A stretch of 64,000 nucleotides of DNA from an uncultured virus (IMG/VR IMGVR_UViG_3300033121_002286) (taxonomy: Duplodnaviria; Heunggongvirae; Uroviricota; Caudoviricetes): IMG/VR virus record IMGVR_UViG_3300033121_002286; one strand, given 5' to 3'. The notes beneath the pieces are model-generated. The model was not told the DNA's origin, did no database searches, and saw nothing but the letters and a program-made list of their open reading frames with translations. Each line of letters starts with the position of its first letter. Within the stretch, counting starts at the first letter, position 1. A program made the position numbers and the translations under genes. Positions 1,333 to 55,989 of this stretch are shown here, piece by piece.

Positions 1333-2790
1333 ATGATTATTATTTGTTGCGTATTAATTTTATTATATATTATTTTTGTGTATGATATTTTCCAAAAAAA
1401 GCATACTATTTTACACAATTATCCCATTGTTGGACATTTAAGGTTTCTACTTGAAAAAATAGGACCTGAACTCAGGCAATATTTTATTGAAAATAACAGA
1501 GAGGGATTGCCTTTTAACAGAAGTCAGAGAACTTATGTTTACGCCTCCTCAAAAAAAGAAAATAGTAATGAAGGTTTTGGATCAGATAAAGACTTTTCTG
1601 ATCCTAAGCATTTTTTTATTAACAACTCCTTGTTTCCAAAGAAAGAAAACCCATCAGATTTTTCTTATCCAATTTACCCCAAAAAATTAATTGGGCTAAA
1701 AAGAAAAAAACCTTTTTGGCCAAGTAGCTTTATTAATATATCAGGGATGAGTTTTGGTGCCCTGTCAGGAGCTGCTGTTGAAGCTTTAAATAAAGGTGCA
1801 AAACTTTCAGGCTGTTATCAGGCCACAGGCGAAGGTGGGCTTTCTAAATACCACAAGAGCGGGGCAGATATAGTTTTTCAATTTGGTACCGGATACAATG
1901 GTGTCCGTGGAAAAGATGGTAAATTTTCTTTTCCAATGATTGAAAAATTAGTTAAAGAGAATGCATTTATAAAAATGATTGAGATTAAACTTCATCAAGG
2001 AGCAAAGCCTGGGGCTTGGAGTATTCTTCCTAAAAACAAAATGACAAAAGAAATTTTAGAAACTCGTGGTTTAAAGAGTGGAGAGGATTCTGTTTCACCT
2101 GGCTATCACACTGCATTTTCTAACACACAAGAGTTAATAGATTTTATTGAAAAAATCGCATCAACAACAGGGCTTCCGGTGGGTATAAAGTGTGGGGTCG
2201 GTAACCTTGATTTGTGGTGGGAGCTTGCAGAAAAGATGGCAAAAACAGGAATGGGACCAGACTATATTGTTATTGATGGTGCTGAGGGTGGAACAGGTTC
2301 TGCAAAAGGAAGCTTTGTTGATCATGTGGGTTTGCCATTTGCTGAAGCGTTTTCTTCTGTGTATAAAATTTTTCAACATTATAAAATTGAAGAAAATATT
2401 ACATGGATTGGATCTGCAAAATTGGGATTTCCTGCACAGGCTATTTTTGCAATGGCTTTGGGATGTGATATGATAAACATAGGAAGGGAGGCGATGATGA
2501 GTATTGGTTGTATTCAGGCCCAACAATGCCACTTAAACACTTGTCCATCTGGAATAGCAACTCAAAACAAATGGAAGCAAAGAGGTTTGAACCCTGAGTT
2601 AAAATCAGTAAGATTTTCTAATTACCTTACACAACTACAAAGAGATATAATGGAAATAACAATTTCTGCTGGTTACTCACATCCATCTGAATTTACAACT
2701 TTGGATATTAAAGTTAATTCGGGAGATGGAAACACATTAATATCTCTTAATAATGTATATAATTATATTGCAACAAAAAAAACAAAATGA
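1333..2790 (+). CDS. FMN-binding glutamate synthase family protein
   Basis: MSFGALS, TGEGG, EIKLHQGAKPG, DGAEGGTG and CIQAQQCHLNTCPSGIATQ 3Fe-4S motif. Confidence 0.92.
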   Translation: MIIICCVLILLYIIFVYDIFQKKHTILHNYPIVGHLRFLLEKIGPELRQYFIENNREGLPFNRSQRTYVYASSKKENSNEGFGSDKDFSDPKHFFINNSLFPKKENPSDFSYPIYPKKLIGLKRKKPFWPSSFINISGMSFGALSGAAVEALNKGAKLSGCYQATGEGGLSKYHKSGADIVFQFGTGYNGVRGKDGKFSFPMIEKLVKENAFIKMIEIKLHQGAKPGAWSILPKNKMTKEILETRGLKSGEDSVSPGYHTAFSNTQELIDFIEKIASTTGLPVGIKCGVGNLDLWWELAEKMAKTGMGPDYIVIDGAEGGTGSAKGSFVDHVGLPFAEAFSSVYKIFQHYKIEENITWIGSAKLGFPAQAIFAMALGCDMINIGREAMMSIGCIQAQQCHLNTCPSGIATQNKWKQRGLNPELKSVRFSNYLTQLQRDIMEITISAGYSHPSEFTTLDIKVNSGDGNTLISLNNVYNYIATKKTK

Positions 2791-3884: not shown

Positions 3885-4577
3885 TTAAAACTGACTTTCC
3901 CGGTATATTTCTTGAATGGCTACTTGGTGATCTTTCAGCTCTTTCATTATGGCCTTATATTCAGACTTTGACAAATACTCTTTTTGATCGTTTATATCGC
4001 CTTCAATTAATCCGTTGATGATTTTCTGGACACTAGCCATAATACCCCTATAATTAATAAAAAGGTACTCTAACGAGCAATTTCCAGCGGCAACCAACGG
4101 ATACACTGAGGCTATAGTCTCTATATCAAAATCACCAACCCCTGTGAATTCATGTTGTATGTCTGTTTGTGGAAAATTGCCGGTAAAAGCCTGGGCCATC
4201 ATAAAATTAAAGCAAAAATCCTCAAAAGATATTTTTTTGTTGTTCACAAAAACCAAATCGTTATATGACCGAACATCAAACTTGGTTTTTAAAAACCTGC
4301 TATAAGAACTTGTAAAATTTGAAAAAACAAAAACCGAAAGAGAGGGGCTCAAATCGGCTTTTGTTAAAAACTCTCTATAATGAATAATTTCATTTTTTTT
4401 CAGATCAGAGTAAAACTCCTTATCCATTCCACTAACATCTTTATTAGTATCATGGAATTCAAAAAATTGTTTTGATCTTATGTCCCCCTGTGGTGTCAAA
4501 TCCGGCATGAAGATTTCATCTATAGCCACTTCTAATTCGAGACCTTTTCGTATATTGATTCCTGTGGTGTATTTCAT
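3885..4577 (-). CDS. hypothetical protein
   Basis: 230-aa ORF with TAnnTTTG element directly upstream. Confidence 0.7.
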   Translation of the reverse strand: MKYTTGINIRKGLELEVAIDEIFMPDLTPQGDIRSKQFFEFHDTNKDVSGMDKEFYSDLKKNEIIHYREFLTKADLSPSLSVFVFSNFTSSYSRFLKTKFDVRSYNDLVFVNNKKISFEDFCFNFMMAQAFTGNFPQTDIQHEFTGVGDFDIETIASVYPLVAAGNCSLEYLFINYRGIMASVQKIINGLIEGDINDQKEYLSKSEYKAIMKELKDHQVAIQEIYRESQF

Positions 4578-8202: not shown

Positions 8203-8242
8203 AAAAAAAAAGGATACAATTACTTGTATCCTTTTTCTTTTT
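8203..8242. terminator. intrinsic terminator downstream of ssb
   Basis: AAAAAGGATACAA-TTAC-TTGTATCCTTTTT hairpin with A/T tracts. Confidence 0.8.
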
Positions 8243-27516: not shown

Positions 27517-28521
27517 TCACTTAGGGAAATTAGACCACTTTAATTCATTGCTTTTCCACTTAAAATAATCATCAACAGCGTTTTTGCCAGAATTTATTAA
27601 AAAATCTATTTTTTCTTTTGACAATTTAAATTCGGTGGTACCAACATTTCCACTATCAATAAAAACAGTTCTATTCCAGTCATTATTATTTAAATGCTTT
27701 TTATTTACCATTTCCAATGTGAAATTAGCTAAAGTAACAATAAAATTTTTAAGACTTTTTGTTGAATGGGGGTCTACTTCCCAGGATGCAGACTCCTTTA
27801 AATAATTTTTTTCATCTTTTGAATCTACTCTAAAACCTAATGTTTCATAATTAAATGCGTAATCAGGATCATAATCTGAATATGCAAAAATAGCATTGTC
27901 TGGATTATATACATATTTTCTGTTGTCAAATAATTGTATTGGATAATTAGAAGTTAGTCCACCATCAACATAGTAATCATCATTTTCTTTTATACTTGTA
28001 AAAAATATTGGTATACTCATAGACATTCTTACTGCTTTATATATTGGAAGATCGGGATGATTTTCAAAAGATATTGCTTCTGCTTTTTGTTTTGTTACAT
28101 TGGTTGTTACCACATACAAGTCCTTGTATCCTGGTTCTTTTTTCTGAATTTTATTATTTAAATCCCTAAATGTAAAATTTCTATTTCCAGTCTTTTTCTC
28201 AATTAAGTCACCCAACCACTTTTCAAATGTATCACCCTTATTCCATCCATAATATTTTAAAAGTCTAATAATATCTCTAATAAATAAAAATGTATTGTCT
28301 TCAAATTTTTTAAAACTTGTTTCTGCAACAATATTTAAAATGTCATTTGAAGAATATCCAACCGCAATCAAACATGCTGTAATCGCTCCTGCAGAGGTTC
28401 CAGCAACACGAGTTAACCCTGAAATAATTCCAAGCTCATCAAGTTTTAAAAGAGAACCACCGTAAGCAATCCCCTTTACACCACCCCCTTCTAGAACTAA
28501 ATTTTTATAATTTAAATTCAT
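27517..28521 (-). CDS. patatin-like phospholipase
   Basis: EGGGVKG, GTSAG, DGG. Confidence 0.93.
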   Translation of the reverse strand: MNLNYKNLVLEGGGVKGIAYGGSLLKLDELGIISGLTRVAGTSAGAITACLIAVGYSSNDILNIVAETSFKKFEDNTFLFIRDIIRLLKYYGWNKGDTFEKWLGDLIEKKTGNRNFTFRDLNNKIQKKEPGYKDLYVVTTNVTKQKAEAISFENHPDLPIYKAVRMSMSIPIFFTSIKENDDYYVDGGLTSNYPIQLFDNRKYVYNPDNAIFAYSDYDPDYAFNYETLGFRVDSKDEKNYLKESASWEVDPHSTKSLKNFIVTLANFTLEMVNKKHLNNNDWNRTVFIDSGNVGTTEFKLSKEKIDFLINSGKNAVDDYFKWKSNELKWSNFPK

Positions 28522-31766: not shown

Positions 31767-31802
31767 AAAACAAAAAGCCCCGGAGATTTTGTCTCCGAGG
31801 CT
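31767..31802 (-). terminator. attenuator terminator of the His/Asn tRNA operon
   Basis: AGCCTCGGAGA-CAAAA-TCTCCGGGGCT-TTTTGTTTT; 5' arm complementary to TCTCCGA in the leader ORF. Confidence 0.85.
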
Positions 31803-31828
31803 CTATGATTTTATTTGGTTCAGTTTGG

Positions 31829-31897
31829 TCAAATCATATCCATTCGGAGAATTCCTTTTCCGTTATTATTGTGATTATGATTGATTACAGTGAACAT
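31829..31897 (-). CDS. Asn/His-rich leader peptide MFTVINHNHNNNGKGILRMDMI
   Basis: 22-aa ORF between promoter (31995) and terminator; 7 consecutive Asn/His codons. Confidence 0.85.
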   Translation of the reverse strand: MFTVINHNHNNNGKGILRMDMI

Positions 31898-32086
31898 TGT
31901 GTTTTTATTTTTTATACCCTGTGAGTTGCCTGGCACCTCTTGAGTCGTTATCGTTTTATTTACAGTAAATAGTATAATTTTATTTTTCTGAACACAAACA
32001 TACAACAATAATACGCTTTTACAAACATTTTTTAATTTAAAATGTATAATTCATTGATTTGTAGGGTGATAATTTATTGAAAATTG

Positions 32087-37205: not shown

Positions 37206-37619
37206 GTGAAAACAAAAAACATGAAAAAGACATTTAGAATAGCAATTATAATAATTTTAACAGCCCTTTCAATTGCCGCAATGGGTGTTCATTTGTTTAG
37301 CAAACCACATCAAGATATAAGCAATGAAACCCCAGCGTTATCAATTAATTCTAGTTTATTGGTGGCAGACTTTGAAGGAGATGAGAATATAGCCAACTCA
37401 AAATACTTGGGGAAAATAATAGAAGTAACTGGCACAATCACTGAAAAAGATAGTGTAAGTATAATATTAAAAGCCACTGATTTGTCCGGTGTTAACTGTG
37501 CTATGGACAAAAATTATAAAATAGATCATTTAAAAGAGGGACAACAAGTTAAAATAAAAGGAATTTGCACCGGGATATTAATGGACGTTGTTTTGGTGGA
37601 TTGTGTTATAGAAAATTAA
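37206..37619 (+). CDS. membrane-anchored OB-fold protein (tRNA_anti-like)
   Basis: TM helix, ANSKYLGKIIEVTGTI, LKEGQQVKIKGICTG. Confidence 0.75.
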   Translation: MKTKNMKKTFRIAIIIILTALSIAAMGVHLFSKPHQDISNETPALSINSSLLVADFEGDENIANSKYLGKIIEVTGTITEKDSVSIILKATDLSGVNCAMDKNYKIDHLKEGQQVKIKGICTGILMDVVLVDCVIEN

Positions 37620-38571: not shown

Positions 38572-39156
38572 ATGGCACAAAAAATACGCAAATTAGATTC
38601 TCCACAATCTGCTGGTGGCAGAGCAACTGCAATTATTTTAAGAAAAAAAGCATTAGAATCATATTATAGCAACCCATCAATTTGTAAACAATGCTCAAAA
38701 ATAATTACAGTTCAAGACAATCAAAAAGTTCCAGATGTAAGGAGAAAAAAGTTTTGTAGTCAATCATGTTCTGCTTCACATAACAACTCCATAAGAGAAA
38801 GAAAAATAAAATTAAAAGTTTTAAAAGAAAAAAAAATAATTGATAAATTTAATTGTTTAAAGAATATTTCTAAAAAAGAAATGTTCGATAAATGTCCAAA
38901 TTACCAATCAGCCAGAGCGAGGATTCAAAAACACGCAAGATATATATACTCAATTTCAAACAAACCAGAGTGTTGTTCCGAATGTGGATATGATAAACAC
39001 TATGAAGTCTGCCATATAAAACCGGTTTCTAAATTTAGTGATGAATCATTAATAATTGAAAATATAAATAACATTAATAATTTAATAGCGTTTTGCCCAA
39101 CACATCATTGGGAATTTGACAATGGTATTTTAAAAATAAAAACCTCCAATAGATAA
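38572..39156 (+). CDS. HNH endonuclease with N-terminal Zn-binding motif
   Basis: CKQC..FCSQSC; CSECG..EVCHIKP..NLIAFCPTHHWEFD. Confidence 0.85.
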   Translation: MAQKIRKLDSPQSAGGRATAIILRKKALESYYSNPSICKQCSKIITVQDNQKVPDVRRKKFCSQSCSASHNNSIRERKIKLKVLKEKKIIDKFNCLKNISKKEMFDKCPNYQSARARIQKHARYIYSISNKPECCSECGYDKHYEVCHIKPVSKFSDESLIIENINNINNLIAFCPTHHWEFDNGILKIKTSNR

Positions 39157-39182
39157 CTACTACGGAGGTTTTTATTTAATTG

Positions 39183-39265
39183 TAGCGGAAGGAGGACTCG
39201 AACCTCCGAGGCGTTATGCACTAGATTATGAGTCTAGACCGATGACCATCTTCGGACATTCCGCA
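39183..39265 (-). tRNA. tRNA-Met(CAT), 1:72 mismatch, enlarged variable region
   Basis: TGCGGAA/TTCCGCT-A; CTAGA-CTCATAA-TCTAG; GGAGG-TTCGAGT-CCTCC. Confidence 0.85.
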
Positions 39266-40153: not shown

Positions 40154-40167
40154 TTTTTTTATTTTTG

Positions 40168-40253
40168 TCCTCCCAGTGGGACTCGAACCCACGATGGACT
40201 TTTACATCACCTGCTTAAGAGGCAGATCCAATCGCCACTATGGAGATGGGAGG
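40168..40253 (-). tRNA. tRNA-Lys(CTT) with long variable arm
   Basis: CCTCCCA/TGGGAGG-A; CTGC-CTCTTAA-GCAG; GTGGG-TTCGAGT-CCCAC; 86 nt. Confidence 0.85.
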
Positions 40254-40259
40254 AAGTTG

Positions 40260-40347
40260 TGTACCTGGTGGGATTCGAACCCACGATGCAACTTACGTTG
40301 GACGGTTTAAAAGACCGATGTATTCGACCAGCTCTACGCACAGATAC
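40260..40347 (-). tRNA. tRNA-Lys(TTT) with long variable arm
   Basis: GTATCTG/CAGGTAC-A; CGGT-CTTTTAA-ACCG; variable hairpin CAAC-GTAA-GTTG; 88 nt. Confidence 0.85.
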
Positions 40348-40354
40348 ATTTTTG

Positions 40355-40438
40355 TACAGATGGTGGGACTCGAACCCACGATGGATTATTAATCTCCGGT
40401 TTAAAAGACCGTTCCAATCGCCACTATGGGACATCTGC
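40355..40438 (-). tRNA. tRNA-Lys(TTT) with long variable arm
   Basis: GCAGATG/CATCTGT-A; CGGT-CTTTTAA-ACCG; variable hairpin GATT-AAT-AATC; 84 nt. Confidence 0.85.
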
Positions 40439-40440
40439 AT

Positions 40441-40470
40441 AAAAAAAGCACATCTTTTTGTGATGTGCTT
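40441..40470 (-). terminator. attenuator terminator directly 5' of the tRNA-Lys cluster
   Basis: AAGCACATC-ACAAAAA-GATGTGCTT-TTTTT; 5' arm complementary to AGATGTGCTTT (40507..40517) in the leader. Confidence 0.85.
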
Positions 40471-40493
40471 CTTTCAGTTTAGACAATATCCTC

Positions 40494-40556
40494 TCAAGAG
40501 GATGCGAAAGCACATCTTCGATGTTTTTGTTTTTTATGTTTAAGAGTAATTGTCAT
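40494..40556 (-). CDS. Lys-rich leader peptide MTITLKHKKQKHRRCAFASS
   Basis: 20-aa ORF with four AAA codons among codons 6-11, ending 23 nt before the terminator. Confidence 0.8.
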   Translation of the reverse strand: MTITLKHKKQKHRRCAFASS

Positions 40557-40557
40557 T

Positions 40558-40803
40558 TTATTTTTTATAATTTAATTTTAAAAATTCTACTATTTCTTTA
40601 CTTGAAACTAAAGTTGCACCTTGGTTTATTGCATCTTTAAATTTACTTTCTTTAACATCATAATGAGGTTGGTTTTTTCCTCTTTTGTTTTGGAACCAGC
40701 ATTTTTTAATTCCAATCGTTTGTGCAAATATATGTAATTCTTCAATACTATCAGCAATCATGTGACTCCAGCCTTTTATTGGTGTATCAATATAAATTGC
40801 CAT
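40558..40803 (-). CDS. DUF4031-like protein
   Basis: IYID..WSHMIADSIEELH.FA..IG..WFQ..PHYDV. Confidence 0.8.
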   Translation of the reverse strand: MAIYIDTPIKGWSHMIADSIEELHIFAQTIGIKKCWFQNKRGKNQPHYDVKESKFKDAINQGATLVSSKEIVEFLKLNYKK

Positions 40804-41988: not shown

Positions 41989-42181
41989 TTTTTTAACTTA
42001 TTAATTTATTTATTTCATCTATTCCTTTAGACATAGATTCTGTTACTTGTTTAATTGCATCCAATATAGAAGGTGCATATATTTGATTTTTCCATTCTTC
42101 AAAATTCAAAAGAGATTCTGGATTTTGAATTTTATATTGTTTATATTGACTATCTAATGTCATATCTCAATTTGTTTTTTG

Positions 42182-42266
42182 AGGAGAGTACTGGAATTGA
42201 ACCAGTGCAGGTGTTACCCTGACCTCTGTTTAGCAAACAGGCACATTACCACTCTGTCAACTCTCC
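42182..42266 (-). tRNA. tRNA-Ser(GCT)
   Basis: GGAGAGT/ACTCTCC; CTGT-TTGCTAA-ACAG; long variable arm. Confidence 0.9.
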
Positions 42267-42283: not shown

Positions 42284-42601
42284 TTAATTTTCATCCAAAA
42301 ATTTATTCCAACTTTTAATCAACCCTTCTATATTCTCCTTTCCAACCCCATTTGCAGAATGAACATTTACAATCATTCCTCTGAGATCAAATTGCTTTTC
42401 ATTAATTAACCACTTAACACAATCTATTCCATCTTTTCCTTCTCCGGCCCCAAGATCATGATCAAAGGAGCATTCTACTGGCACTCCGAAGTTTTCAATC
42501 GTTGAGATGAAATCTTCATAACTACGAACTACAACCCAAGGTCCGGGAGTTTTTGGATTTCTTTCGTCATCCAAATATAATTTATAGTTTTTAAATTTCA
42601 T
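42284..42601 (-). CDS. cyclic-phosphate-processing receiver-like domain protein
   Basis: LYLDDERNP, VVRSY, SFDHDLG, HSANGVG. Confidence 0.75.
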   Translation of the reverse strand: MKFKNYKLYLDDERNPKTPGPWVVVRSYEDFISTIENFGVPVECSFDHDLGAGEGKDGIDCVKWLINEKQFDLRGMIVNVHSANGVGKENIEGLIKSWNKFLDEN

Positions 42602-42619
42602 AGTTTAACAATTTATTAG

Positions 42620-42706
42620 AGGAAAGCGAAGGAACCGACCCCTTACCAGCTCATCACTGATACCATAGTTTTCAAGACTATTTGTACTCCATGTACGGCG
42701 CTTTCC
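42620..42706 (-). tRNA. tRNA-Ser(TGA), possible 8/4 acceptor/T-stem fold
   Basis: GGAAAGCG/CGCTTTCC 8 bp; ATAGT-CTTGAAA-ACTAT; T loop GTCGGTT. Confidence 0.8.
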
Positions 42707-42715
42707 CTGTTTTTG

Positions 42716-42789
42716 TGGACCCCCTGGGAATTGAACCCAAACCCGCAGTTTTTCAGACTGCTGTGCACACCAAATTACACCAAAGGTCC
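42716..42789 (-). tRNA. tRNA-Phe(GAA)
   Basis: GGACCTT/GGGGTCC-A; GCAGT-CTGAAAA-ACTGC. Confidence 0.9.
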
Positions 42790-42802
42790 ATAATAAAAGT
42801 TA

Positions 42803-42874
42803 TCTCAGCCAGCACGGTTAGCGCACGTAGCCGCCTTGTTTTTCCCATTGTTTGGCGCATATGGGTACTGAGCA
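42803..42874 (-). ncRNA. unidentified GC-rich structured RNA between tRNA-Met and tRNA-Phe
   Basis: Closing stem CTCAGT/GCTGAG; CCCAT/ATGGG hairpin whose loop CGCC can pair with downstream GGCG. Confidence 0.5.
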
Positions 42875-42883
42875 TCACCTTTG

Positions 42884-42987
42884 TAACGGAGGCGAGAATC
42901 GAACTCGCATTCTCTTTCGAGATCGGGTTTATGAGACCCGGCTGGACTTCATTTGTGTGAAGCTTGCCATTTCCAGTCCACTCCGCA
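42884..42987 (-). tRNA. tRNA-Met(CAT), 104 nt, extra D-loop hairpin and long variable arm
   Basis: TGCGGAG/CTCCGTT-A; CGGGT-CTCATAA-ACCCG; CTTCA-CACAAA-TGAAG insert; TCTC-GAAA-GAGA. Confidence 0.8.
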
Positions 42988-43054
42988 ATATATATTTTAT
43001 GTTGTACTGTTAGTTGGTAATGATGTTGTAGTATTAGTTGGTAATGATGTTGTA

Positions 43055-43087
43055 AACAAAAAAGCCCCGGAGATTATCCAGGGCTTC
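43055..43087 (-). terminator. attenuator terminator of the Met/Phe/Ser tRNA operon
   Basis: AAGCCCTGGA-TAATC-TCCGGGGCTT-TTTT; 5' arm complementary to CCAGGGTTC (43139..43147) in the leader. Confidence 0.85.
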
Positions 43088-43113
43088 TTTTACTTTTTGG
43101 TTTCTTTATATAT

Positions 43114-43221
43114 TCAACTTAGAAACTTATAGGCAATAGAACCCTGGCTCGTCATTTTACTAAATGACGAGAAGAAGCTTTTTGATTTGCTTACTGAGTT
43201 CATATTTGTTACAAGTTGCAT
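43114..43221 (-). CDS. Ser/Phe/Met-rich leader peptide MQLVTNMNSVSKSKSFFSSFSKMTSQGSIAYKFLS
   Basis: 35 aa with 10 Ser, 4 Phe, 3 Met, between promoter (43303) and terminator. Confidence 0.85.
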   Translation of the reverse strand: MQLVTNMNSVSKSKSFFSSFSKMTSQGSIAYKFLS

Positions 43222-43376
43222 TGAAGACTTTTTATTGATTTTGTTAATGTAAATATGCAGAAAAATTTTTTCTGCAGAATTTTTTATTATTTGTTTAGAC
43301 TGCAAACATACATTAGTAATCTGCAGTTTGCAAACATTTTCTAATTTATTTTAATTTAAACACTGTAACTTGTTGA

Positions 43377-43643
43377 TTAGCAAGTTGATATTTTAGAATT
43401 AATAATAAACTCATGCTCTGTAATTATGCATTTTATTTTTTTATCAAACACCGTATCATATTTCATGAATGCTTCTACATGCTCTTTCAATTCAAACCTT
43501 TGTGCTTGTAGAGGATCTCTTGTCCAGGATGGAAATAATTCTATGTTAAAATCATGAGCATAAATTCCTTCTACCGGAGTTCTGTTTAAATAATACCACT
43601 CATGAGTGTCTGTTCTTTCTATAAAATAATAATATTGCTTCAT
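43377..43643 (-). CDS. hypothetical protein
   Basis: 88-aa ORF; WTRDP..A..F, ITEHEF. Confidence 0.6.
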   Translation of the reverse strand: MKQYYYFIERTDTHEWYYLNRTPVEGIYAHDFNIELFPSWTRDPLQAQRFELKEHVEAFMKYDTVFDKKIKCIITEHEFIINSKISTC

Positions 43644-43712
43644 ATGTAGAGAACGCTGAAGCGTGACAAAATCTATAACGTGTTTTTGCTAATTTTTAAT
43701 TTATCTTGAAAT

Positions 43713-45125
43713 CCACCTTCTTTGAAGGTGGTAATATCCTTATGGTTTTGCTTGGAATTAATAAAAAACAAATTAACCAAAAATATTTGTGGTTAAAATA
43801 ATTTTTTCATATATTTATACTTAGAAATTAAAAATGCTTAAAACTTATAAATATAGAATTTCGCCAACCCAAAAGCAAAAACTGCTCTTGGAAAAGCATT
43901 TTGGTGCTGTTCGGTTTGTTTATAATTTAGCACTGGAGACAAAAACAATAGCTTATTCTTCTATTAAATACAACATATCTAGATATGAACTTCAAGAACA
44001 ACTGCGTGATTTAAAAGAAGGATATGAATGGCTGAAAGAAATAAACAGTCAGTCTTTGCAATTCTCTTTACTTAACTTAGATGTAGCTTACACAAACTTT
44101 TTTAAAGGCAGGGCAAAGTTTCCAAATTTTAAAAACAAATATTCTTCTAAACATAGTTTTCATTGTCCACAAAATATTGCCATTGAAAATGGTTTGATAA
44201 CTTTACCGAAATTTAAAGAGGGAATAAAAATAAAATTGCATAGAAAATTTTTTGGAGAAATAAGAAATGCCACGGTAAGCAAAACCTCAACAAATAAATA
44301 TTTTGTATCCATTTTAGTGGATACAAAAGAGAGCACTCCAGATAAACTTTTAATCGAAAAGCAAACAGCAGTTGGAATAGATATGGGAGTTAAAATCTTT
44401 GCCACGTTGTCAAATGGAGAAGATATTCCCAATTCGACTTTTTTAAAATCTTCATTGCAAAGACTAAAAGTTTTGCAAAGGAGATTATCCAAAAAGAAAA
44501 AGGGAAGTGCAAACAGAAAAAAATCAACATTAAAATTAGCGAAGCAACATGAAAAAATAGCAAACCGAAGAAAAGATTTTCTTCACAAAACAACAAATGC
44601 GATAACCAAGCAATATAATACAGTTGTTATTGAAGACTTGAATATAAAAGGAATGAGTGCAAAGTGCAAATCTCAAAAAGATGAGAATGGAAAATACATT
44701 CACAACGGACAGTCAGCAAAGACAGGATTGAACAGATCTATTCTCGATGCTGGCTGGGGCATGTTTGCAGAATTTCTGAAATATAAATGCGAGTGGCGTG
44801 GAAAGAATTTTATCCAAATTGGAAGATTCGAACCTTCTAGTAAAATACACAATGGGTGTGGTTATTATAACCACTCTTTAACTTTACAAGAGAGAGAATG
44901 GATATGTCCAAAATGTGGTAAGTTGGTTGACAGGGAAAAAAACGCAGCATTAAACATATTAGATTTTGGATTAAATCCAAAGCAAAAACAAAAAGATTCA
45001 GGTGTGGAACGCACCGTTGAGCCTGTGGAGTTGCCGACAATGGTTAGGACTGTGAAGCAGGAAAAATTTATGGTTAAGTCTTGTACTTAATTATAATACT
45101 ACCTGCTTTGCAGGTGGTTGTTCAC
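43713..45125 (+). mobile_element. IS200/IS605-family (IS1341-like, TnpB-only) element
   Basis: Hairpins CCACCTTC-TTT-GAAGGTGG (43713..43731) and ACTACCTGC-TTT-GCAGGTGGT (45098..45118) then TGTTCAC; no tnpA; left boundary uncertain. Confidence 0.7.
43834..45090 (+). CDS. tnpB: RNA-guided endonuclease TnpB family protein
   Basis: YKYRISPT..FG.VRFVYN, VGIDMG, VVIEDL, SSK..CG..WICPKCG..DREKNAALNI. Confidence 0.93.
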   Translation: MLKTYKYRISPTQKQKLLLEKHFGAVRFVYNLALETKTIAYSSIKYNISRYELQEQLRDLKEGYEWLKEINSQSLQFSLLNLDVAYTNFFKGRAKFPNFKNKYSSKHSFHCPQNIAIENGLITLPKFKEGIKIKLHRKFFGEIRNATVSKTSTNKYFVSILVDTKESTPDKLLIEKQTAVGIDMGVKIFATLSNGEDIPNSTFLKSSLQRLKVLQRRLSKKKKGSANRKKSTLKLAKQHEKIANRRKDFLHKTTNAITKQYNTVVIEDLNIKGMSAKCKSQKDENGKYIHNGQSAKTGLNRSILDAGWGMFAEFLKYKCEWRGKNFIQIGRFEPSSKIHNGCGYYNHSLTLQEREWICPKCGKLVDREKNAALNILDFGLNPKQKQKDSGVERTVEPVELPTMVRTVKQEKFMVKSCT

Positions 45126-45136
45126 TAAAATTACTG

Positions 45137-45190
45137 ATATTTATTTAAATATCTATATTTATTTAAATATCTATATTTATTTAAATATCT
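45137..45190 (+). repeat. three exact tandem 18-bp repeats ATATTTATTTAAATATCT
   Basis: Copies at 45137, 45155, 45173, each containing TATTTAT. Confidence 0.9.
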
Positions 45191-45199
45191 AAGTAAAAT

Positions 45200-46786
45200 A
45201 TGAAAAATTTAATAAAAACACTCCGTATAAAAATTAAAAATCAATTAAGGGAAAACCTTGAGGATGAAATTGAAAATAAGTGGATAAGTATTTGTTCTAA
45301 GCACAAAGAATATGAACCAGGATGCAGTCTTTGCAATAAAAAAGTAAGATTAAGTGAAGATTTTGAAAGGAATAAAATAATTGCCGGGGAAATAATCAAG
45401 CAACTTGGTGGATTTGGTAAATTAAAATCAATGACCGGTGCTCACACTTTCGTAGCTCACGAAAGTGGGGTTTCTTTTAAAATAAAAAATCCAAAAGCAA
45501 ATTATATCAAAATAATATTAAATGGGAATGATAATTATGATGTGGAAGTTGGAAGAATAAGAGGAATGGATTATAAAGTTTTGGTTAGTGAAACAGATAT
45601 TCCTGCTGAAGGTTTAAAAAATTTAATTGAAAAAAGCACAGGTATGTATCTTTCTTTGTTTGAAAATGGGGTGAATGCTTTATGGAGAAAAGATTTTGAA
45701 AACCAAATAAAACCGGAAGAAGAACGGGATAAAACTTCTGAAATTGAATCAGAAATAGAAATGAGAATGAGTCCTTCTTGGGACGCACTTCCATACTCTG
45801 AAATAAATGAAATAGCCGAAACCTACGGGGTTGACTTTGAAGATGTTTTAAATATAATGCAATCTTATTTAATCAAAAGAAACAATGAGAGAGTTTCTGA
45901 TTTAAAATATTGGGTTAAAGAATTGTTGGATCAATTTGAAAATTCGGGAAACGATAATCCTTCTTGGCAAGAGTTTTATTTAATGTGGACAAAAGAAGGT
46001 TTTCAACATGAAAATTCTTGGGCAACAGAAGGTGATGTAGAAACGGAATACAAAAAACAAACTTCAGATCCAAACCAACTTTCTCTATTTGAAAATTTAA
46101 TAAAAAATTACTTAATAAAAGAATTATATGATAACTTCGGAGATGAGGGATCTCAACCTGGAGATGCTGAATATCATCATGATATGGGACACAATAAAGC
46201 CAATAATGGTAGAGATGTATTTGCCAATATAGATTGGAAAGTATTTTGGGAAACCCTTATAAACAACACAGAAATAACTAAAGATAAAACAAGAGAAGGT
46301 ATTACATATAATGTTTCTGATTTAACAGATGATGATGGGTTTTTAAGCTTTGATAGTTTGAAACATTTGGAAGATTATGGTTTAATTTATAATTGGGATG
46401 GCATTCCTATTATTGATGAACCTGAATATTTAGATTTCAATAAATTTTATAATAAAGCAAAAGAAATTTGGCTTAAAGATGTTAGGGTAAAAAATGACCC
46501 ATCACACGAACCATCTCCTTATTATAGAGGCAATGAAGATTCAATGCTTGAGAATGATTTGCCAGGAGAAAATATAGAATATGAAGTCAAATATGATAAA
46601 TTGGTTGATGGGGAGTACGAACCAAGCAAAGCGTTTTTTAAAGATTTAAAAATGGCAATAATGTTCGCCAAAGAAAAATATGCGGCAATAAGATATACCA
46701 AAACACTTTCAGATGGAAGAGAGGAAACTGGCTATGTTAACGTATCAGATCCTTCTTATCCTTTAATACCTGATAAAAGATTTTAA
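45200..46786 (+). CDS. acidic multi-module hypothetical protein with internal LxE linkers
   Basis: LRE, LSE, LFE, IKE, MLE boundaries; IIKQLGG..MTGA module; DPNQLSLFE. Confidence 0.7.
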   Translation: MKNLIKTLRIKIKNQLRENLEDEIENKWISICSKHKEYEPGCSLCNKKVRLSEDFERNKIIAGEIIKQLGGFGKLKSMTGAHTFVAHESGVSFKIKNPKANYIKIILNGNDNYDVEVGRIRGMDYKVLVSETDIPAEGLKNLIEKSTGMYLSLFENGVNALWRKDFENQIKPEEERDKTSEIESEIEMRMSPSWDALPYSEINEIAETYGVDFEDVLNIMQSYLIKRNNERVSDLKYWVKELLDQFENSGNDNPSWQEFYLMWTKEGFQHENSWATEGDVETEYKKQTSDPNQLSLFENLIKNYLIKELYDNFGDEGSQPGDAEYHHDMGHNKANNGRDVFANIDWKVFWETLINNTEITKDKTREGITYNVSDLTDDDGFLSFDSLKHLEDYGLIYNWDGIPIIDEPEYLDFNKFYNKAKEIWLKDVRVKNDPSHEPSPYYRGNEDSMLENDLPGENIEYEVKYDKLVDGEYEPSKAFFKDLKMAIMFAKEKYAAIRYTKTLSDGREETGYVNVSDPSYPLIPDKRF

Positions 46787-50693: not shown

Positions 50694-51179
50694 TTATTGA
50701 ATTATTTGGATATTATCTTTATCGAAAACACCAATTGATTCAACATCTCTTTCTAATTCTTCAGCAATTAATATTGAATCAAACCCATTTGAAATAGCAC
50801 AATAATAAGCATCATCACAAGTCCAATAAGGTAGTTCTTTATAAAATTGTTCATCCAATATTTCATCAATTTCTTCATTAGTTTTACCATCATTTTTCAA
50901 ATAATCTATAAATAATTCAAAATGATTTTTATTTGAAGTATCGAAAGTGTTGTGAATATTTAATTTTACCTTATAAATATATTTACCATAAGTTTTAGCA
51001 TAGTCCAAATTTTTAGTAAAAAACCAGACAGGTAAATCAATTTCCATATATGTTTTATTATATACTAAATCAAACATATCAAATTTATTATTTGAACCGT
51101 GATACCAAATATCGTTGGAATAATTCTCATTCAAATATTCTCTAATAGTGGTTGCTATAAACTTTCTCAAATCTTTCAT
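50694..51179 (-). CDS. cassette 3: ADP-ribosyltransferase-like protein with LRKFIATTIREYLNE leader
   Basis: WYHGS..F..F, WFFT..YA..YG, GFDSI, E.IGVF. Confidence 0.65.
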   Translation of the reverse strand: MKDLRKFIATTIREYLNENYSNDIWYHGSNNKFDMFDLVYNKTYMEIDLPVWFFTKNLDYAKTYGKYIYKVKLNIHNTFDTSNKNHFELFIDYLKNDGKTNEEIDEILDEQFYKELPYWTCDDAYYCAISNGFDSILIAEELERDVESIGVFDKDNIQIIQ

Positions 51180-52425: not shown

Positions 52426-52953
52426 TTAATTTATCGTTATATATTTTATTGGAACACTGTCTGTCAAATAAACGTTGTTGTTTGATTTATAAAAGGTAAA
52501 ACCATCATTATTCATTTGAACGGCATCTATTTTTAAAACGACAGGCGATCCATGTCGCTTACCAACATTGATAGCTGTTTCAAGATTATCAGACAAATGT
52601 ACGTGATTTCTTGATTGTTTGGTTAGACCTAAATCCATAATTGATCCAAGAAAGCGATGTGCGGTTCCATGATACAAAAAACCGGAAGGAATAAATGGTT
52701 GGAGTTCCACATCCACTTCTACACTATGCCCCTGCCTGGCTCTTATTCTTTGTTGATGCTGGTCAAACTCAAACCTTTTTTTATCATTAGTTTCAACAAT
52801 TTCATCAAGTTCTGTTTTTTTTATTTTTAAAATTTTTAAAATGTCAGAAACATTTGCCCAACCCTTATCACTTAAAACTATCCCAACAGATTCGGGGTCA
52901 TGCCTTAAAATTTTTGATAAAAATTTGCTTTGCCTTTGTAATTCTTTTCTCAT
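52426..52953 (-). CDS. kptA: RNA 2'-phosphotransferase Tpt1/KptA
   Basis: SKFLSKILRHDP, NDKKRF, IRARQGHS, LYHGT, RNHVHLS, VGKRHG. Confidence 0.95.
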   Translation of the reverse strand: MRKELQRQSKFLSKILRHDPESVGIVLSDKGWANVSDILKILKIKKTELDEIVETNDKKRFEFDQHQQRIRARQGHSVEVDVELQPFIPSGFLYHGTAHRFLGSIMDLGLTKQSRNHVHLSDNLETAINVGKRHGSPVVLKIDAVQMNNDGFTFYKSNNNVYLTDSVPIKYITIN

Positions 52954-52961
52954 TGGTATTT

Positions 52962-52988
52962 AAACGGTTAAAAGTTATAAAAGTTACA
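52962..52988 (-). promoter_or_regulatory. ECF-sigma-type promoter TGTAAC-N16-CGTTT
   Basis: Exact motif 8 nt upstream of the kptA start. Confidence 0.7.
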
Positions 52989-55900
52989 AACTTTTCTTTT
53001 TGCTTAAAACAATTTGCAACAAATCATCAAAAACACTATGTTTAACAGAGTTCTCTCTGTGTTCACCATCTAAAATTTGCATTGTTATTTTTTCTTTTTT
53101 ATTAAGCAACTCTTCGATATATTCATCTATTGTGTCTTGAACAACAAGCCTTATAATTTGTACATTATCCGATTCTTGTCCTGCCCGATGACAACGATCC
53201 TCAGCCTGAATTCGATCTGATGGTGTCCATGGCTGATCAATAAAAAGGACAGTACTGGCTGATGTCAAAGTAAGACCAACACCTGCAGCACCAATAGTTC
53301 CTGAAAACACCTTTTTCTTTTCATCTTCCATGAATTTTTCTCTTGCTTCTTCCTTTTCCTCAGCCGATTTTTTCCCGGTATACCAAACAGCATTGTCTTT
53401 AAACTCCTCATATATCATTCGTGTTGTTTCAACATATTGAGAAAAAACAACAACCTTTTCATCTCCATCAATTATGTTTCTTATAAATTCAAATGATCTT
53501 TGGGCACAAATTTTAGAAGTAAACATTTTTAATTTCTGAATTTTTGCCAAACCAACCATCCTATCATCATCTTCAGAGGTATCTTCAACAACTCCTTTTT
53601 CTAATTTTTTATATTCCCTTAATTCTTCTGGGGTTAAATAAATTGGAATTATTGTATATGTTTTTGCTGGTAAATATTCTAAAACTCCAGGATCTTTTTT
53701 TCTTCTTCTTAAATATAAATAAGATAATTTTTGAAACAACTCTGCTTCATTCGTAGAATCATCATAATTCCAATGTCCCCACTCATCTTCTTTACCGCCA
53801 CAATATTTTACTCCAAAACTGTGTGAGTTAACCCATTCAAAGGGATCAAGAAAGTTTAATACAGGAAAAAACTCATAAGGCTTGTTTTTAATGGCAGTTC
53901 CAGACATTAAAATTTTTCTTGGTGTCTTTTTAAATCCAGCATTAACAAGCTTGTATCTGCTCGATTTTACATTTTTGATATAATGACAATTAGATACCAG
54001 TATATTATTTGCATAATAATTATGATTGTCTGAAATTTCTAAATTAAAAACTTCTTTATTTCCAACACAACCGCTTCTATTGAATTGTCTATTTCCTGAT
54101 TCCAGAATCTCAATACTTTCCACCCTAGAAAATTCAATATTTCCGTTTTCCTCTTGTCCAAAAATTTCCATTTTTTCATTAGATGCGTTTTTCCATCTAC
54201 CTCTATTGATAATTTCAATTCTGGAAATGCCAAATCCACTTTGTAATGATTTGGCAAACTTTTGAAAAATCCCCTCGCTGGCCTTGTTTTTATTGGATAT
54301 TCCATTACCCATCCTTCTCCCAAAGAATCGTATAACCTTTGTTGCTGTTTTGTTATTTGTCCATTGCCACCTCTTGATAAAAATGTTTTTCCAACTGAAC
54401 TCTTTTTCATTTTTTCTATGTTTTTTTGATCCGCCATAGGGTTGTTCAATTTCATTCGAATTGAAGATTTTTGGGCTCTTGCAGGGTTGTTCTGATAATT
54501 TTTTAAATTTGACTCTTTTACTTTTCGCTTGGTTTCTTCCGTATATATCTTTGCCCTTATTTCCGGTTGGGACATTCTCCATTTTGCAGAACAATTCGTT
54601 GAACAAAATCTTCTTTTTTGAGATTGTTTTCCGTTTGATTTTATTTTGAATGTTTTTCCACACCATTGACATGATTTTACTATCAAAGGCTTTGAATTTC
54701 GTTTCTTTACTGCCAATTTTGATTTCTGGGTGTTCATAATTGTTTTTGAGGCGCAACTCACACTGCAATATTTTCCCTTTTTCCATATTTGCTTTTTGCT
54801 CAGCGGTTTTTGACAACACCCACACAGTATCTCCAGTTTTAATTTCTTCTGCTCTGACATATTTGTTTCCGTTTATATAGATTTTGTGATTTGGAGTGCA
54901 AACGATATCTTGTCCATTGTTTGTTCTTATTTTTAACAAACAAGATGATGTTTGCTTCTTTATATATCTGTTTATTTTTTTATATTCATTTTTTTTTGTA
55001 ATATGATTATAACTTAGTACTTTAAAATCTAAATTAAATTCAACCAAATCTCCTATTGGAACATTACCAAATTCGGTCATAATATTTGTTTCATAAACAA
55101 AGCATTCATCAATTACGACCAAATCATAAATTGATGTTTTTAAATCCACACCACCCTTGTCAACAAAACTACACAATTCTGTATTCCTAGATTTAACAGA
55201 ATTTTCTTTAAAACACTTGGGACACATTTTGTGTTTTTTCACCTGGCTCACTTCATCAAAATCACAATAAGGATTTTGACATTTATGATGAACGTCAAAC
55301 TTCAAATAAGTCTCTAAAGCATTATAACTTACAATGTGAATTTTACTTGTTTCTGGACTGCCCAATTGTAGTCCTTCTTTTTTCTTTATCTTATATTTAA
55401 AGACATATGGTACCTCATGTGTAAATTTCAAAATTTCCTTTGCCCAAATAAGCGCAAGAGAGGCAGGACATATAATTAAAGTTTGGAAGTGGTGTTTGGC
55501 TGAATATGAAATTGCTGTAAGGGTCTTGCCCACACCTGGCTCATCCCCCAACAAAGCTACACCATCAGAACATTCAAAAAATTTAACAGCTTTCTTCTGA
55601 TATAAATAAGGCTCGATCTTCATAAAAGAATAATCCTCATTTTTTATTTCCTCATCAAAATCTCCATTCTTAAATTTTTCTACCTGGATTAATCTTTCTT
55701 TTCTTTTTTTAACATACTCTTCAACTTTCCAAATTTCTTTTTCTGATAAATTTTCGTATTGATATAAAATGTGATTATCTTGACAATACCACATTATTTT
55801 CATTAATCCGTGAATGTTGCAAATATGAAACCAATCTTTTTTAGACTGTCCACTATCCGTAATTACAGTGTCAAAAGCGGTCTTAATCTGTTCTTTGGAT

Positions 55901-55989
55901 ATGGTTTTAAGGTGTTTTATGAGTTCTTCGTCATACCCAAACCTGACCTGAAAATTGGTCCTTATACGTTTAATCTTGACTACTGGCAT
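52984..55989 (-). CDS. SNF2-family (SMARCAL1/HARP-like) helicase with intein
   Basis: DEPGVGKT, IICPASL, VIDE|CH, MSGTA, KVVVFS, AAGVGLTLT, QAEDRCHRAGQ. Confidence 0.92.
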   Translation of the reverse strand: MPVVKIKRIRTNFQVRFGYDEELIKHLKTISKEQIKTAFDTVITDSGQSKKDWFHICNIHGLMKIMWYCQDNHILYQYENLSEKEIWKVEEYVKKRKERLIQVEKFKNGDFDEEIKNEDYSFMKIEPYLYQKKAVKFFECSDGVALLGDEPGVGKTLTAISYSAKHHFQTLIICPASLALIWAKEILKFTHEVPYVFKYKIKKKEGLQLGSPETSKIHIVSYNALETYLKFDVHHKCQNPYCDFDEVSQVKKHKMCPKCFKENSVKSRNTELCSFVDKGGVDLKTSIYDLVVIDECFVYETNIMTEFGNVPIGDLVEFNLDFKVLSYNHITKKNEYKKINRYIKKQTSSCLLKIRTNNGQDIVCTPNHKIYINGNKYVRAEEIKTGDTVWVLSKTAEQKANMEKGKILQCELRLKNNYEHPEIKIGSKETKFKAFDSKIMSMVWKNIQNKIKRKTISKKKILFNELFCKMENVPTGNKGKDIYGRNQAKSKRVKFKKLSEQPCKSPKIFNSNEIEQPYGGSKKHRKNEKEFSWKNIFIKRWQWTNNKTATKVIRFFGRRMGNGISNKNKASEGIFQKFAKSLQSGFGISRIEIINRGRWKNASNEKMEIFGQEENGNIEFSRVESIEILESGNRQFNRSGCVGNKEVFNLEISDNHNYYANNILVSNCHYIKNVKSSRYKLVNAGFKKTPRKILMSGTAIKNKPYEFFPVLNFLDPFEWVNSHSFGVKYCGGKEDEWGHWNYDDSTNEAELFQKLSYLYLRRRKKDPGVLEYLPAKTYTIIPIYLTPEELREYKKLEKGVVEDTSEDDDRMVGLAKIQKLKMFTSKICAQRSFEFIRNIIDGDEKVVVFSQYVETTRMIYEEFKDNAVWYTGKKSAEEKEEAREKFMEDEKKKVFSGTIGAAGVGLTLTSASTVLFIDQPWTPSDRIQAEDRCHRAGQESDNVQIIRLVVQDTIDEYIEELLNKKEKITMQILDGEHRENSVKHSVFDDLLQIVLSKKKSL
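53989..55104 (-). mobile_element. intein (372 aa) inserted in the DE|CH box
   Basis: Starts CFVYET, block B CTPNH, ends VFNLEISDNHNYYANNILVSN followed by Cys. Confidence 0.92.
54039..54860 (-). CDS. DUF559/Vsr-like endonuclease encoded out of frame inside the intein
   Basis: CGCC..YCSVSC, CQWC..FCSTNC, RMKLNNPM, YKVDLA..IEVDGKTH..DKRK..GWKVLRFWN. Confidence 0.85.
   Translation of the reverse strand: MSEQKKLKLEILCGCCQKPLSKKQIWKKGKYCSVSCASKTIMNTQKSKLAVKKRNSKPLIVKSCQWCGKTFKIKSNGKQSQKRRFCSTNCSAKWRMSQPEIRAKIYTEETKRKVKESNLKNYQNNPARAQKSSIRMKLNNPMADQKNIEKMKKSSVGKTFLSRGGNGQITKQQQRLYDSLGEGWVMEYPIKTRPARGFFKSLPNHYKVDLAFPELKLSIEVDGKTHLMKKWKFLDKRKTEILNFLGWKVLRFWNQEIDNSIEAVVLEIKKFLI

Follow-up and report, generated by a model that had tools for sequence, protein, structure and literature searches.

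A candidate leader-peptide attenuator ahead of a tRNA and RNA-repair gene island in a large uncultured phage

The virus record IMGVR_UViG_3300033121_002286 (IMG/VR; Caudoviricetes) belongs to a large uncultured phage, and the stretch of it analysed here (64,000 nucleotides, hereafter the window; GC content 30%) encodes an island of tRNA genes preceded by a structured leader. Indeed, a short open reading frame (ORF) rich in serine, phenylalanine and lysine codons, a set of competing RNA pairings, an intrinsic terminator and the downstream tRNA genes are all located on the minus strand. In our estimate it is somewhat more probable than its opposite (roughly 0.55) that this leader, called module 1 below, is a ribosome-mediated attenuator of the trp type acting on a phage tRNA and RNA-repair gene island, an assessment drawn from sequence analysis. 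The features of the leader and the genes behind it are the following, segments 1 to 4 being the strands of the proposed switch.

43303..43340, minus strand: putative promoter-like element AAAATGTTTG-N20-TGTATGTTTG, found by pattern match
43256..43276, minus strand: AT-rich hairpin A, TGCAGAAAAAATTTTTCTGCA, in the 5' leader, from RNA folding
43195..43221, minus strand: segment 1 (anti-antiterminator strand), the ORF start region, from minimum-free-energy folds
43114..43203, minus strand: predicted leader ORF of 29 codons plus stop, MNSVSKSKSFFSSFSKMTSQGSIAYKFLS (ATG at 43203..43201, TGA at 43116..43114)
43156..43197, minus strand: control-codon run S V S K S K S F F S S F S K, codons 3-16
43148..43171, minus strand: hairpin H, perfect 10-bp stem CTCGTCATTT/AAATGACGAG with loop AGTA, codons 11-19, -11.9 kcal/mol
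43138..43147, minus strand: segment 2, CCAGGGUUCU, the 5' strand of the antiterminator, ORF codons 19-22
43100..43126, minus strand: small hairpin GUUUCU/AGAAAC, which holds the stop codon, from nascent-RNA folds in the window and in the relative L006
43057..43090, minus strand: intrinsic terminator (segments 3 and 4) AAAAGAAGCCCUGG-AUAAU-CUCCGGGGCUUUUUUG, -21.1 kcal/mol, from our own terminator scan
43006..43053, minus strand: two tandem copies of a 24-nt unit, read from the sequence, in the spacer between the terminator and the tRNA-like gene
~42884..42986, minus strand: aberrant tRNA-like gene with anticodon loop CUCAUAA, read by eye, with no tool call
42715..42789, minus strand: tRNA-Phe(GAA), ARAGORN and Rfam
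42620..42707, minus strand: tRNA-Ser(UGA)-like gene (acceptor stem of 8 bp, short T-stem, long variable arm), Rfam tRNA-Sec model
42284..42601, minus strand: cRec (cyclic-phosphate processing receiver) domain protein of 105 aa, PF20274, 6.9e-26
42181..42266, minus strand: tRNA-Ser(GCU), ARAGORN and Rfam
40167..40438, minus strand: three tRNA-Lys genes (UUU, UUU, CUU) of 85-89 nt, with an extra 3-4-bp variable-region stem and weak D-arms
39182..39265, minus strand: tRNA(CAU) of 84 nt, variable region of 13 nt, T-T mismatch at positions 1:72

Downstream of the leader, ARAGORN called tRNA-Phe(GAA) and tRNA-Ser(GCT) only. An earlier reading made from the sequence alone (the sequence-only reading) had also relied on a tRNA-Ser(TGA) and a tRNA-Met: the former is a match to the tRNA-Sec model only, below its threshold (32.7 bits versus 47, E 0.0022) and without an ARAGORN call, and the latter was read by eye. 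The tRNA-Ser(UGA)-like gene resembles the (8/4) tRNA-Ser that PMC5389517 describes from phage tRNA clusters, and its acceptor stem shows compensatory changes in two related loci from metagenome contigs, L002 (~800..880) and L006 (~3890..3980). In the aberrant tRNA-like gene (42884..42986), a hairpin of ~19 nt is inserted in the D-loop and the long variable arm is capped by GAAA; against Rfam its T-arm alone matches, as a tmRNA fragment, and L006 has a normal 75-nt tRNA-Met(CAU) at its place. The cRec gene sits within the tRNA cluster, and several small ORFs, the three tRNA-Lys genes, the tRNA(CAU) gene and then a strong terminator at ~39136 follow further downstream on the minus strand. The tRNA genes of the window are those for CAU (two), Phe, Ser (two) and Lys (three). 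L006 has tRNA genes for CAU, Phe, Ser and Lys and one or more further tRNA-like genes with an unread anticodon, and its Lys and Met tRNAs measure 72-76 nt, in contrast to the long-armed Lys and CAU tRNAs of the window.

The predicted leader peptide comprises 10 Ser, 4 Phe, 4 Lys and 2 Met among its 29 residues, and the codon string given in the sequence-only reading is exact on the minus strand. The serine codons are divided between five UCN (TCA three times, TCG, TCT) and five AGY (AGC three times, AGT twice). A serine content of at least 9/29 was found in a single one of the 426 ATG-initiated ORFs of 20-45 codons in the window, namely the leader itself. Furthermore, its uninterrupted run of 12 Ser/Phe/Lys codons (43191..43156) is the longest in the six frames of the window, the runner-up having 9, and only 7 of 1140 three-amino-acid sets reach a run of at least 12 there. 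Codons that are rare within their own families are over-used in the run (AGC, 9%; TCG, 3%; TTC, 14%), a mild peculiarity. The enriched leader codons are those read by the phage's own tRNAs, and the Ser tRNAs cover the leader Ser codons. The four species proposed earlier as sensed (Met, Phe, Ser-UCN and Ser-AGY) need amendment: Met is not enriched, being represented by the start codon and one internal ATG, and Lys had been overlooked, with three to four AAA codons within the run, so that the run is one of Ser, Phe and Lys in both genomes. Likewise, the argument that the use of both serine codon boxes indicates isoacceptor-level matching, and hence tRNA sensing, does not hold, as both boxes are expected in a peptide with 10 Ser when AGY accounts for ~30% of the Ser codons in the long ORFs of the phage. 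The Ser boxes do not separate tRNA sensing from amino-acid sensing, and the idea of tRNA sensing rests on the fact that the regulated genes are tRNAs.

Translation of the leader ORF is predicted from its sequence. No Shine-Dalgarno sequence precedes the leader ORFs, which is not evidence against translation because a Shine-Dalgarno-like core in the interval -20..-4 is found at only 1 of 52 long ORFs (8.1% at random positions); true starts in the window are preceded by 48% A, and the regions upstream of the leader ORFs are similarly A-rich. An alternative in-frame ATG at 43221, which would prepend MQLVTN, is kept in L006, and a search with the leader frame read as 63 aa gave no called homologue. 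The element upstream, AAAATGTTTG-N20-TGTATGTTTG, may serve as promoter. It resembles the Bacteroidota promoter type (-33 TTTG / -7 TAnnTTTG); the general pattern TTTG-N17-21-TAnnTTTG is not enriched across the window (9 occurrences versus a mean of 6.3 expected; 20 of 100 shuffles reach 9). The scarcity of Shine-Dalgarno cores and this motif, although unenriched, hint at a host of the Bacteroidota type. The variants listed for other strains fall at 43314, 43321, 43325 and 43293, all outside both promoter-like motifs.

RNA folding predicted a switch with alternative states. The 251-nt stretch folds at -62.5 kcal/mol (z -6.4), a value matched by none of 200 shuffles. The duplex predicted between segment 2, CCAGGGUUCU, and the 5' arm of the terminator, AGAAGCCCUGG, contains a single bulged G and has an energy of -15.6 kcal/mol; when the 120 nt upstream were dinucleotide-shuffled, 16 of 2000 shuffles reached such an energy, as did 3 of 1000 in the control run. 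This 2:3 antiterminator is the minimum-free-energy fold of the nascent RNA both in the window and in L006, and the GUUUCU/AGAAAC hairpin, whose arms are identical and whose loop is variable in L006, sits inside the antiterminator loop. In full-length folds of both sequences, segment 1 pairs with segment 2 and its 3' flank. Along the growing transcript, segment 2 is predicted to pair with segment 1 for 3' ends from 43138 to 43082 (G43143-C43197), with segment 3 at 43078-43070, and from 43066 onwards the terminator forms together with the 1:2 pairing. The perfect 10-bp hairpin H at 43148..43171 noticed in the sequence-only reading is borne out, as is the motif CCAGGGTTC (43147..43139, minus strand) immediately 3' of it. 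The proposal of a multivalent attenuator stands in so far as a full attenuator anatomy precedes the tRNA genes and is kept in L006, and falls short in the part assigned to hairpin H: the partner competing for CCAGGGUUC is the ORF start region, not hairpin H, which could possibly be a pause hairpin. Perfect hairpins of at least 10 bp give 9 overlapping matches at 5 distinct places in the window, versus a mean of 1.8 in 30 dinucleotide shuffles.

The geometry agrees with control by a translating ribosome. If the ribosome is taken to cover 15 nt on the 5' side and 12 nt on the 3' side of the first base of the A-site codon, segment 2 is free with A-site codons 1-15 and masked with codons 16-26, in the window as in L006, and the Ser/Phe/Lys run (codons 3-16) ends just 5' of segment 2. 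In brief, the module combines an intrinsic terminator, a 2:3 antiterminator, a 1:2 pairing that involves the ORF and suitably placed control codons that correspond to the downstream tRNAs. From these sequences, the competing pairings with their energies, the geometry and the conservation in one relative, a read-through response to ribosome stalling is predicted, which could proceed as follows. RNA polymerase would transcribe the ~240-nt leader. With no ribosome, segment 1 would pair with segment 2, the terminator would form and the transcript would end at about 43057, termination at this site being predicted from the stem and the U-tract. Under fast translation, a ribosome at codons 16-30 would cover segment 2 or sit between segments 2 and 3, again leaving the terminator to form; a ribosome at the stop codon, in the 48-nt loop between segments 2 and 3, would probably block the antiterminator sterically. 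A ribosome slowed on the Ser/Phe/Lys run (codons 3-15) would keep segment 1 away and leave segment 2 free to pair with the terminator 5' arm once made, and the polymerase would run on into the tRNA-like CAU gene, tRNA-Phe, the two tRNA-Ser genes and the cRec gene. The three tRNA-Lys genes would lie behind a second attenuator, with Lys codons (module 2, below). Such a loop would act during infection as a homeostat for usable tRNA-Ser, tRNA-Phe and tRNA-Lys, homeostatic because its products decode the codons that cause the stall.

This organisation is that of the leader-peptide (class I) attenuators of amino-acid operons, such as the trpL, hisL, pheL, thrL, leuL and ilv leaders. As in these systems, a short ORF carries control codons just 5' of the antiterminator strand, the exclusive 1:2, 2:3 and 3:4 pairings end in an intrinsic terminator, and the terminator is more stable than the antiterminator, which implies a kinetic decision; the multivalent codon run is similar to those of thrL and the ilv leaders. 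However, phage tRNA genes and an RNA-repair-type gene would be regulated here instead of biosynthetic enzymes, the control set is Ser/Phe/Lys, there is no Shine-Dalgarno sequence, the ORF contains an extra 10-bp hairpin, and no score at the gathering threshold was obtained with the Rfam leaders (Thr_leader, His_leader, Trp_leader and others). The pheM leader attenuates pheST, which encodes phenylalanyl-tRNA synthetase. In both cases a component of the translation apparatus is, or in the phage would be, controlled by stalling at codons of the corresponding amino acid, but pheM governs a synthetase in a cellular genome, whereas the present leader concerns tRNAs and three amino acids in a phage. 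No published description of leader-peptide attenuation of tRNA genes was found in the portions of articles returned by a full-text literature search.

A mechanism like that of a T-box, in which the leader RNA itself would sense tRNA, was also considered, since the regulated genes are tRNAs and a conserved loop, AAAUCAA in the window and in L006, contains a UCA codon. T-box riboswitches share with the proposed mechanism a choice between terminator and antiterminator made by tRNA status; unlike it, they bind tRNA directly and need no ORF. Their defining elements are absent here: the leader (43050..43310) has no T-box, other riboswitch or any other match in Rfam at E values up to 1, there is no Stem I or specifier-loop architecture, and the antiterminator has a single bulged G in place of the 7-nt bulge that pairs with NCCA. 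We give this explanation almost no weight.

The comparison with a relative bears on whether these parts belong together. A search with the cRec protein found 8 loci in metagenome contigs (L002-L009). Only L006 covers the leaders; L002 starts inside tRNA-Phe, and L003-L005 and L007-L009 are without the region. L006 is part of a 46-kb contig, its cRec protein is 80% identical to that of the window, and its tRNA-Phe differs strongly by eye. At 2399..2488 it encodes MNSSSKSSFKSSFKSKMTNQGSIAYKFLN, of 29 codons, equal to the ORF of the window, and this frame is the sole one open in both sequences. Segment 2 with its 3' flank (27 nt, segment 2 fully) and the terminator (~35 nt) are identical in L006, which is predicted to show the same three-state alternation; the terminator carries a U6 tract and is also present in contigs of strain X5. 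In the middle of the ORF, a codon-aware reading of L006 against the window gives one AAA lost, one AAA gained, TTC to AAA, GTA to TCA and two synonymous changes of TCA to TCT. All 14 codons of the run are Ser, Phe or Lys in L006, compared with 13 of 14 in the window, the longest Ser/Phe/Lys run of L006 is 14 (the next is 7), and its leader Ser codons are 6 UCN and 3 AGY. A gapped pairwise alignment places one 3-nt indel wholly inside the run, the indels of the flanks being of 1-3 nt and mostly of 1 nt; this in-frame indel is suggestive of a conserved frame, in a part where the alignment is ambiguous. Of the 57 pairs of the terminated fold, L006 leaves 47 unchanged and breaks 6; a further 2 differ on one side but can still form, 1 shows a compensatory change and 1 coincides with an alignment gap. 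Hairpin A is not kept in L006.

A chance coincidence of terminator, hairpin and open frame in AT-rich intergenic DNA has to be set against these data. An open frame of ~30 codons is not rare in such sequence, and the codon statistics are post hoc, calculated once the pattern was known. The preservation of all parts in L006 makes chance unlikely, as do the z score of the fold, the 16 of 2000 shuffles that reach the antiterminator energy, the first rank of the Ser/Phe/Lys run in 64 kb and the presence of two more modules of like build in the window. Altogether, chance appears very improbable.

The terminators of the window provided a control. Intrinsic terminators of like type are present at several gene ends, and 17 of the 28 matches of the scan were submitted to the shuffle test of antiterminator pairing; 2 duplicates (39142, 8232) and the weak plus-strand matches at 23790, 32657, 54930, 3679, 31432, 40702, 61954, 42749 and 51867 were set aside manually. 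For 12 of these 17 terminators, 166-957 of 1000 shuffles did as well as the native sequence, versus 3 and 0 of 1000 for the two that precede tRNA genes (43063 and 40447). The other low values were 4 of 1000 at 39136, 10 of 1000 at 8238 (one member of a bidirectional pair) and 27 of 1000 at 31776 (module 3, below).

An ordinary small transcript with a promoter and a terminator of its own, either a small structured RNA or one that encodes a micro-protein, would account for part of these observations, the tRNAs then being expressed from elsewhere or by leaky read-through. Indeed, a promoter-like element, a structured body and a strong terminator would be expected of it, and a promoter could lie in the 70 nt of spacer ahead of the first tRNA-like gene. 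Conservation is higher in the leader than in the tRNAs next to it, as would suit an RNA with a function of its own, and the lack of a match to any Rfam family leaves room for a new small RNA. However, it leaves unexplained both the antiterminator complementarity, seen at the two tRNA-proximal terminators and not at 12 of the 17 tested, and the match between the Ser/Phe/Lys run and the tRNA set. Moreover, at module 2 only 2 nt separate the U-tract from tRNA-Lys, and the middle of the leader peptide is poorly conserved (4 non-synonymous versus 3 synonymous codon changes by our count). This explanation is thus considered improbable.

Two further modules of similar build were identified in the window, both upstream of other genes of the minus strand.

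40439..40556, minus strand: module 2, with an ORF at 40556..40494 encoding MTITLKHKKQKHRRCAFASS and the antiterminator strand GAAGAUGUGCUUUC at 40519..40506
40445..40471, minus strand: terminator stem of module 2, with a U-tract to 40441, 2 nt before the first tRNA-Lys
31772..32035, minus strand: module 3, paralogous, with a promoter-like element, an ORF at 31897..31829 encoding MFTVINHNHNNNGKGILRMDMI and a terminator at 31803..31772

In module 2, the terminator 3' arm has an upstream copy able to pair with the 5' arm; its energy of -13.9 kcal/mol was equalled by 6 of 2000 shuffles and, in the control run, by 0 of 1000. The tRNA-Lys genes need read-through because the 2-nt gap leaves no room for a promoter. 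Module 2 is kept in L006 (5898..6020), where the ORF encodes MTHLVSKQKKPVHRRCDFTSS with an in-frame indel of 9 nt, the start codon being shifted by two codons and the stop standing at the same place. Against Rfam, module 2 gives 25.5 bits with Thr_leader, for a threshold of 55. In module 3, UUCUCCGA (31851..31844) can pair with the terminator arm UCGGAGA (27 of 1000 shuffles; fold z -4.1), and a run of Asn/His codons ends ~12 nt before it, the last Asn codon being at 31864..31862 and segment 2 starting from 31851. The codon run therefore abuts segment 2 in module 3, and roughly so in module 2. Modules 1 and 3 have in common the promoter-like element (~40 nt, repeated at 31995..32035), the motifs TATTTAC and GCAACU and the terminator 3' arm; the ORF is not shared. 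The protein ORFs downstream of module 3 belong to no Pfam family. The phage has a family of such switches, in which the codons match the tRNAs in two modules and not in the third. 'Codons match products' is not a general rule because module 3 breaks the pattern, and a factor common to all three modules is possible.

With such a factor the switch could be real without depending on translation: read-through at all three modules would be decided by a factor of the phage or the host, or by processive antitermination established at the conserved elements of the leaders, for example in temporal control, and the ORFs would be incidental. The elements shared by modules 1 and 3 are the 5' elements and the terminator 3' arm, not the ORF, module 3 precedes ordinary protein genes, and the terminator is favoured at nearly all ribosome positions, all of which suit this explanation. 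The two serial terminators (43063 and 40447) in one tRNA region also fit it, serial terminators being found in phage operons read by a terminator-resistant polymerase, as with lambda N and Q. In lambdoid late operons, Q lets the polymerase pass from pR' through tR'; N/nut and put are further antitermination systems. The present locus resembles these operons by a phage promoter (here a promoter-like element), a strong terminator within ~200-250 nt and the serial terminators; it differs from N, Q and put in that these modify the polymerase, without an RNA-encoded antiterminator or a codon-biased ORF. Here an antiterminator is encoded in the RNA at each terminator, something for which a processive system has no need. 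Furthermore, ORF frame and length are kept across indels in L006, all three ORFs have unusual single-class codon runs ending just before segment 2, and no candidate factor was identified. Control independent of translation is possible but, in our view, unlikely.

The leader-peptide attenuator is in turn confronted with several observations that weigh against it. Firstly, the terminator is favoured by ~6-7 kcal/mol with the ribosome at codons 6-15, and only codons 1-3 bring the difference to ~0. The switch must be kinetic, as in trp, because the terminator is thermodynamically favoured; a kinetic decision is accepted for trp attenuation. Secondly, the Lys signal of module 2 is weak (4 of 20 codons are Lys in the window, 3 of 21 in L006; Lys makes up 11% of long-ORF codons in this AT-rich genome), and the Asn/His run of module 3 precedes protein genes, the window having no Asn or His tRNA. 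Thirdly, hairpin H, the main feature of the sequence-only reading, does not compete with the antiterminator. In L006 it is a 10-bp stem with a bulge, in which 2 of the 10 window pairs fail, and in strain X13, among the differences listed, a change of A to C at 43152 (minus strand, Thr to Pro) breaks a pair unless compensated. Fourthly, the comparative base is one relative in which the core pairs are invariant and so give no covariation. Finally, the first gene behind the switch is the aberrant tRNA-like gene, which is skipped in strain X5, and the variable 70-nt spacer behind the terminator could hold a promoter.

Regarding the genomic setting, the PHROG families matched by proteins of the window include those of a Lon-like protease, an intein-containing SNF2 helicase and a TnpB transposase; the top match of the Lon-like protease (52.5% identity) is a protein of a 642-kb uncultured phage record. 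Near-identical DNA was found in 20 runs among those listed, from 12 studies, whose source labels are mostly activated sludge, sludge or wastewater, and some riverine; none of the listed runs is recorded as RNA. The strain comparison relied on contigs of 4 of the 24 listed runs (X5, X9, X13 and X14), with patchy cover. The ~70 nt that separate the terminator from the first tRNA-like gene are a variable spacer: its 24-nt tandem copies are not present in L006, and in strain X5 a joint skips 42886..43054, that is, the tRNA-like gene and the tandem spacer, with 62 unlike letters preceding 43056. The sequence TATATTGCGG ahead of the CAU tRNAs is no general motif.

Directly upstream of the leader, the block 43377..45200 contains an orphan ORF of 88 aa and a TnpB-type transposase gene (43834..45090; phrog_506, 4.8e-117), which is followed by AT-rich tandem repeats (45118..45192). 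Contigs of other strains part from the window at ~43395-43402, and the block looks like a strain-specific insertion. The 88-aa ORF finds almost no relatives because synteny breaks at this point in other strains: it matches only itself in the protein database, has no match in the metagenome contigs and gives a single weak partial match, L001, in the viral contigs.

Searches for further copies of the leader covered several collections. A blastn search of 42600..43700 against 50,697 phage records gave no match, exact-pattern scans for the leader gave 0 matches in viral contigs and genome contigs, and the cRec protein found no match in viral contigs. The sole gapped-pattern match in genome contigs (L010) was rejected as a chance match, as it lies within coding DNA of high GC content and has neither a tRNA nor an Rfam match, and none of the 14 viral loci matching a 17-mer of the terminator 3' arm was leader-like (0/14) or accompanied by a tRNA (0/14).

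Two side observations concern tRNA genes. In a distant cRec-bearing phage contig, L008, a tRNA at 1211..1285 has the anticodon UUA (reading UAA) and is a possible ochre suppressor. In the window, the terminator at 39136..39182 (minus strand) has a 5' arm whose complement is found in the T-arm of the tRNA(CAU) just before it (-15.7 kcal/mol, 4 of 1000 shuffles); this terminator could be folding-dependent, or the complementarity a coincidence.

Genes potentially linked to RNA repair or to conflict with the host are encoded elsewhere in the window, next to other features of interest.

52426..52953, minus strand: Tpt1/KptA RNA 2'-phosphotransferase, 7.4e-49
50694..51179, minus strand: ART-PolyVal-like domain, 29.8 bits, below the Pfam cut-off of 31.2
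37206..37619, plus strand: tRNA_anti-like OB-fold protein
27517..28521, minus strand: patatin-like phospholipase
40558..40803, minus strand: DUF4031, directly before module 2, also in L006
47739..48180, minus strand: GOLLD RNA, 151 bits versus an Rfam gathering threshold of 150, E 3e-40
52984..55989, minus strand: SNF2-family helicase interrupted by an intein (Intein_splicing, 8e-13)

The GOLLD RNA lies ~4.5 kb from the tRNA region and is followed by a terminator-like hairpin at ~47632. Judging from these domain matches, cRec, DUF4031, Tpt1/KptA, the ART-PolyVal-like domain, the OB-fold protein and the patatin-like phospholipase suggest a gene set for RNA repair and (NAD-based) conflict. PMC7824862 proposes that, in jumbo phages, cRec removes cyclic phosphate ends so that RNA can be ligated; this proposal fits, without demonstrating, an island that answers tRNA damage. 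As a more speculative and rather doubtful extension, the attenuators may be tripwires: a nuclease of the host's defences cutting tRNA-Lys, tRNA-Ser or tRNA-Phe (Asn or His for module 3) would cause stalls on the leader runs, which would turn on replacement tRNAs and repair-type genes. The repair-type genes in question are those of cRec, DUF4031 and Tpt1/KptA, with the GOLLD RNA in the vicinity. Candidates for replacement tRNAs of odd structure would be the tRNA-Ser with the 8-bp acceptor, the tRNA-Lys with the extra variable arm and the tRNA-like gene with the D-loop insertion.

Phage tRNA genes are usually discussed as constitutive helpers of codon usage. If the leader-peptide attenuator were confirmed, the phage would instead gauge the usable tRNA pool and top it up on demand, the logic of the trp operon being applied to the translation machinery itself, and the leader, a small self-contained module, might, if it works, find use as a sensor of tRNA availability. 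More recently, phage tRNA genes have also been described (PMC10264068, PMC11464382 and PMC11555353) as decoys or replacements against tRNA-cutting defences; if the tripwire extension held, the island would represent an inducible counter-defence whose sensor is translation itself.

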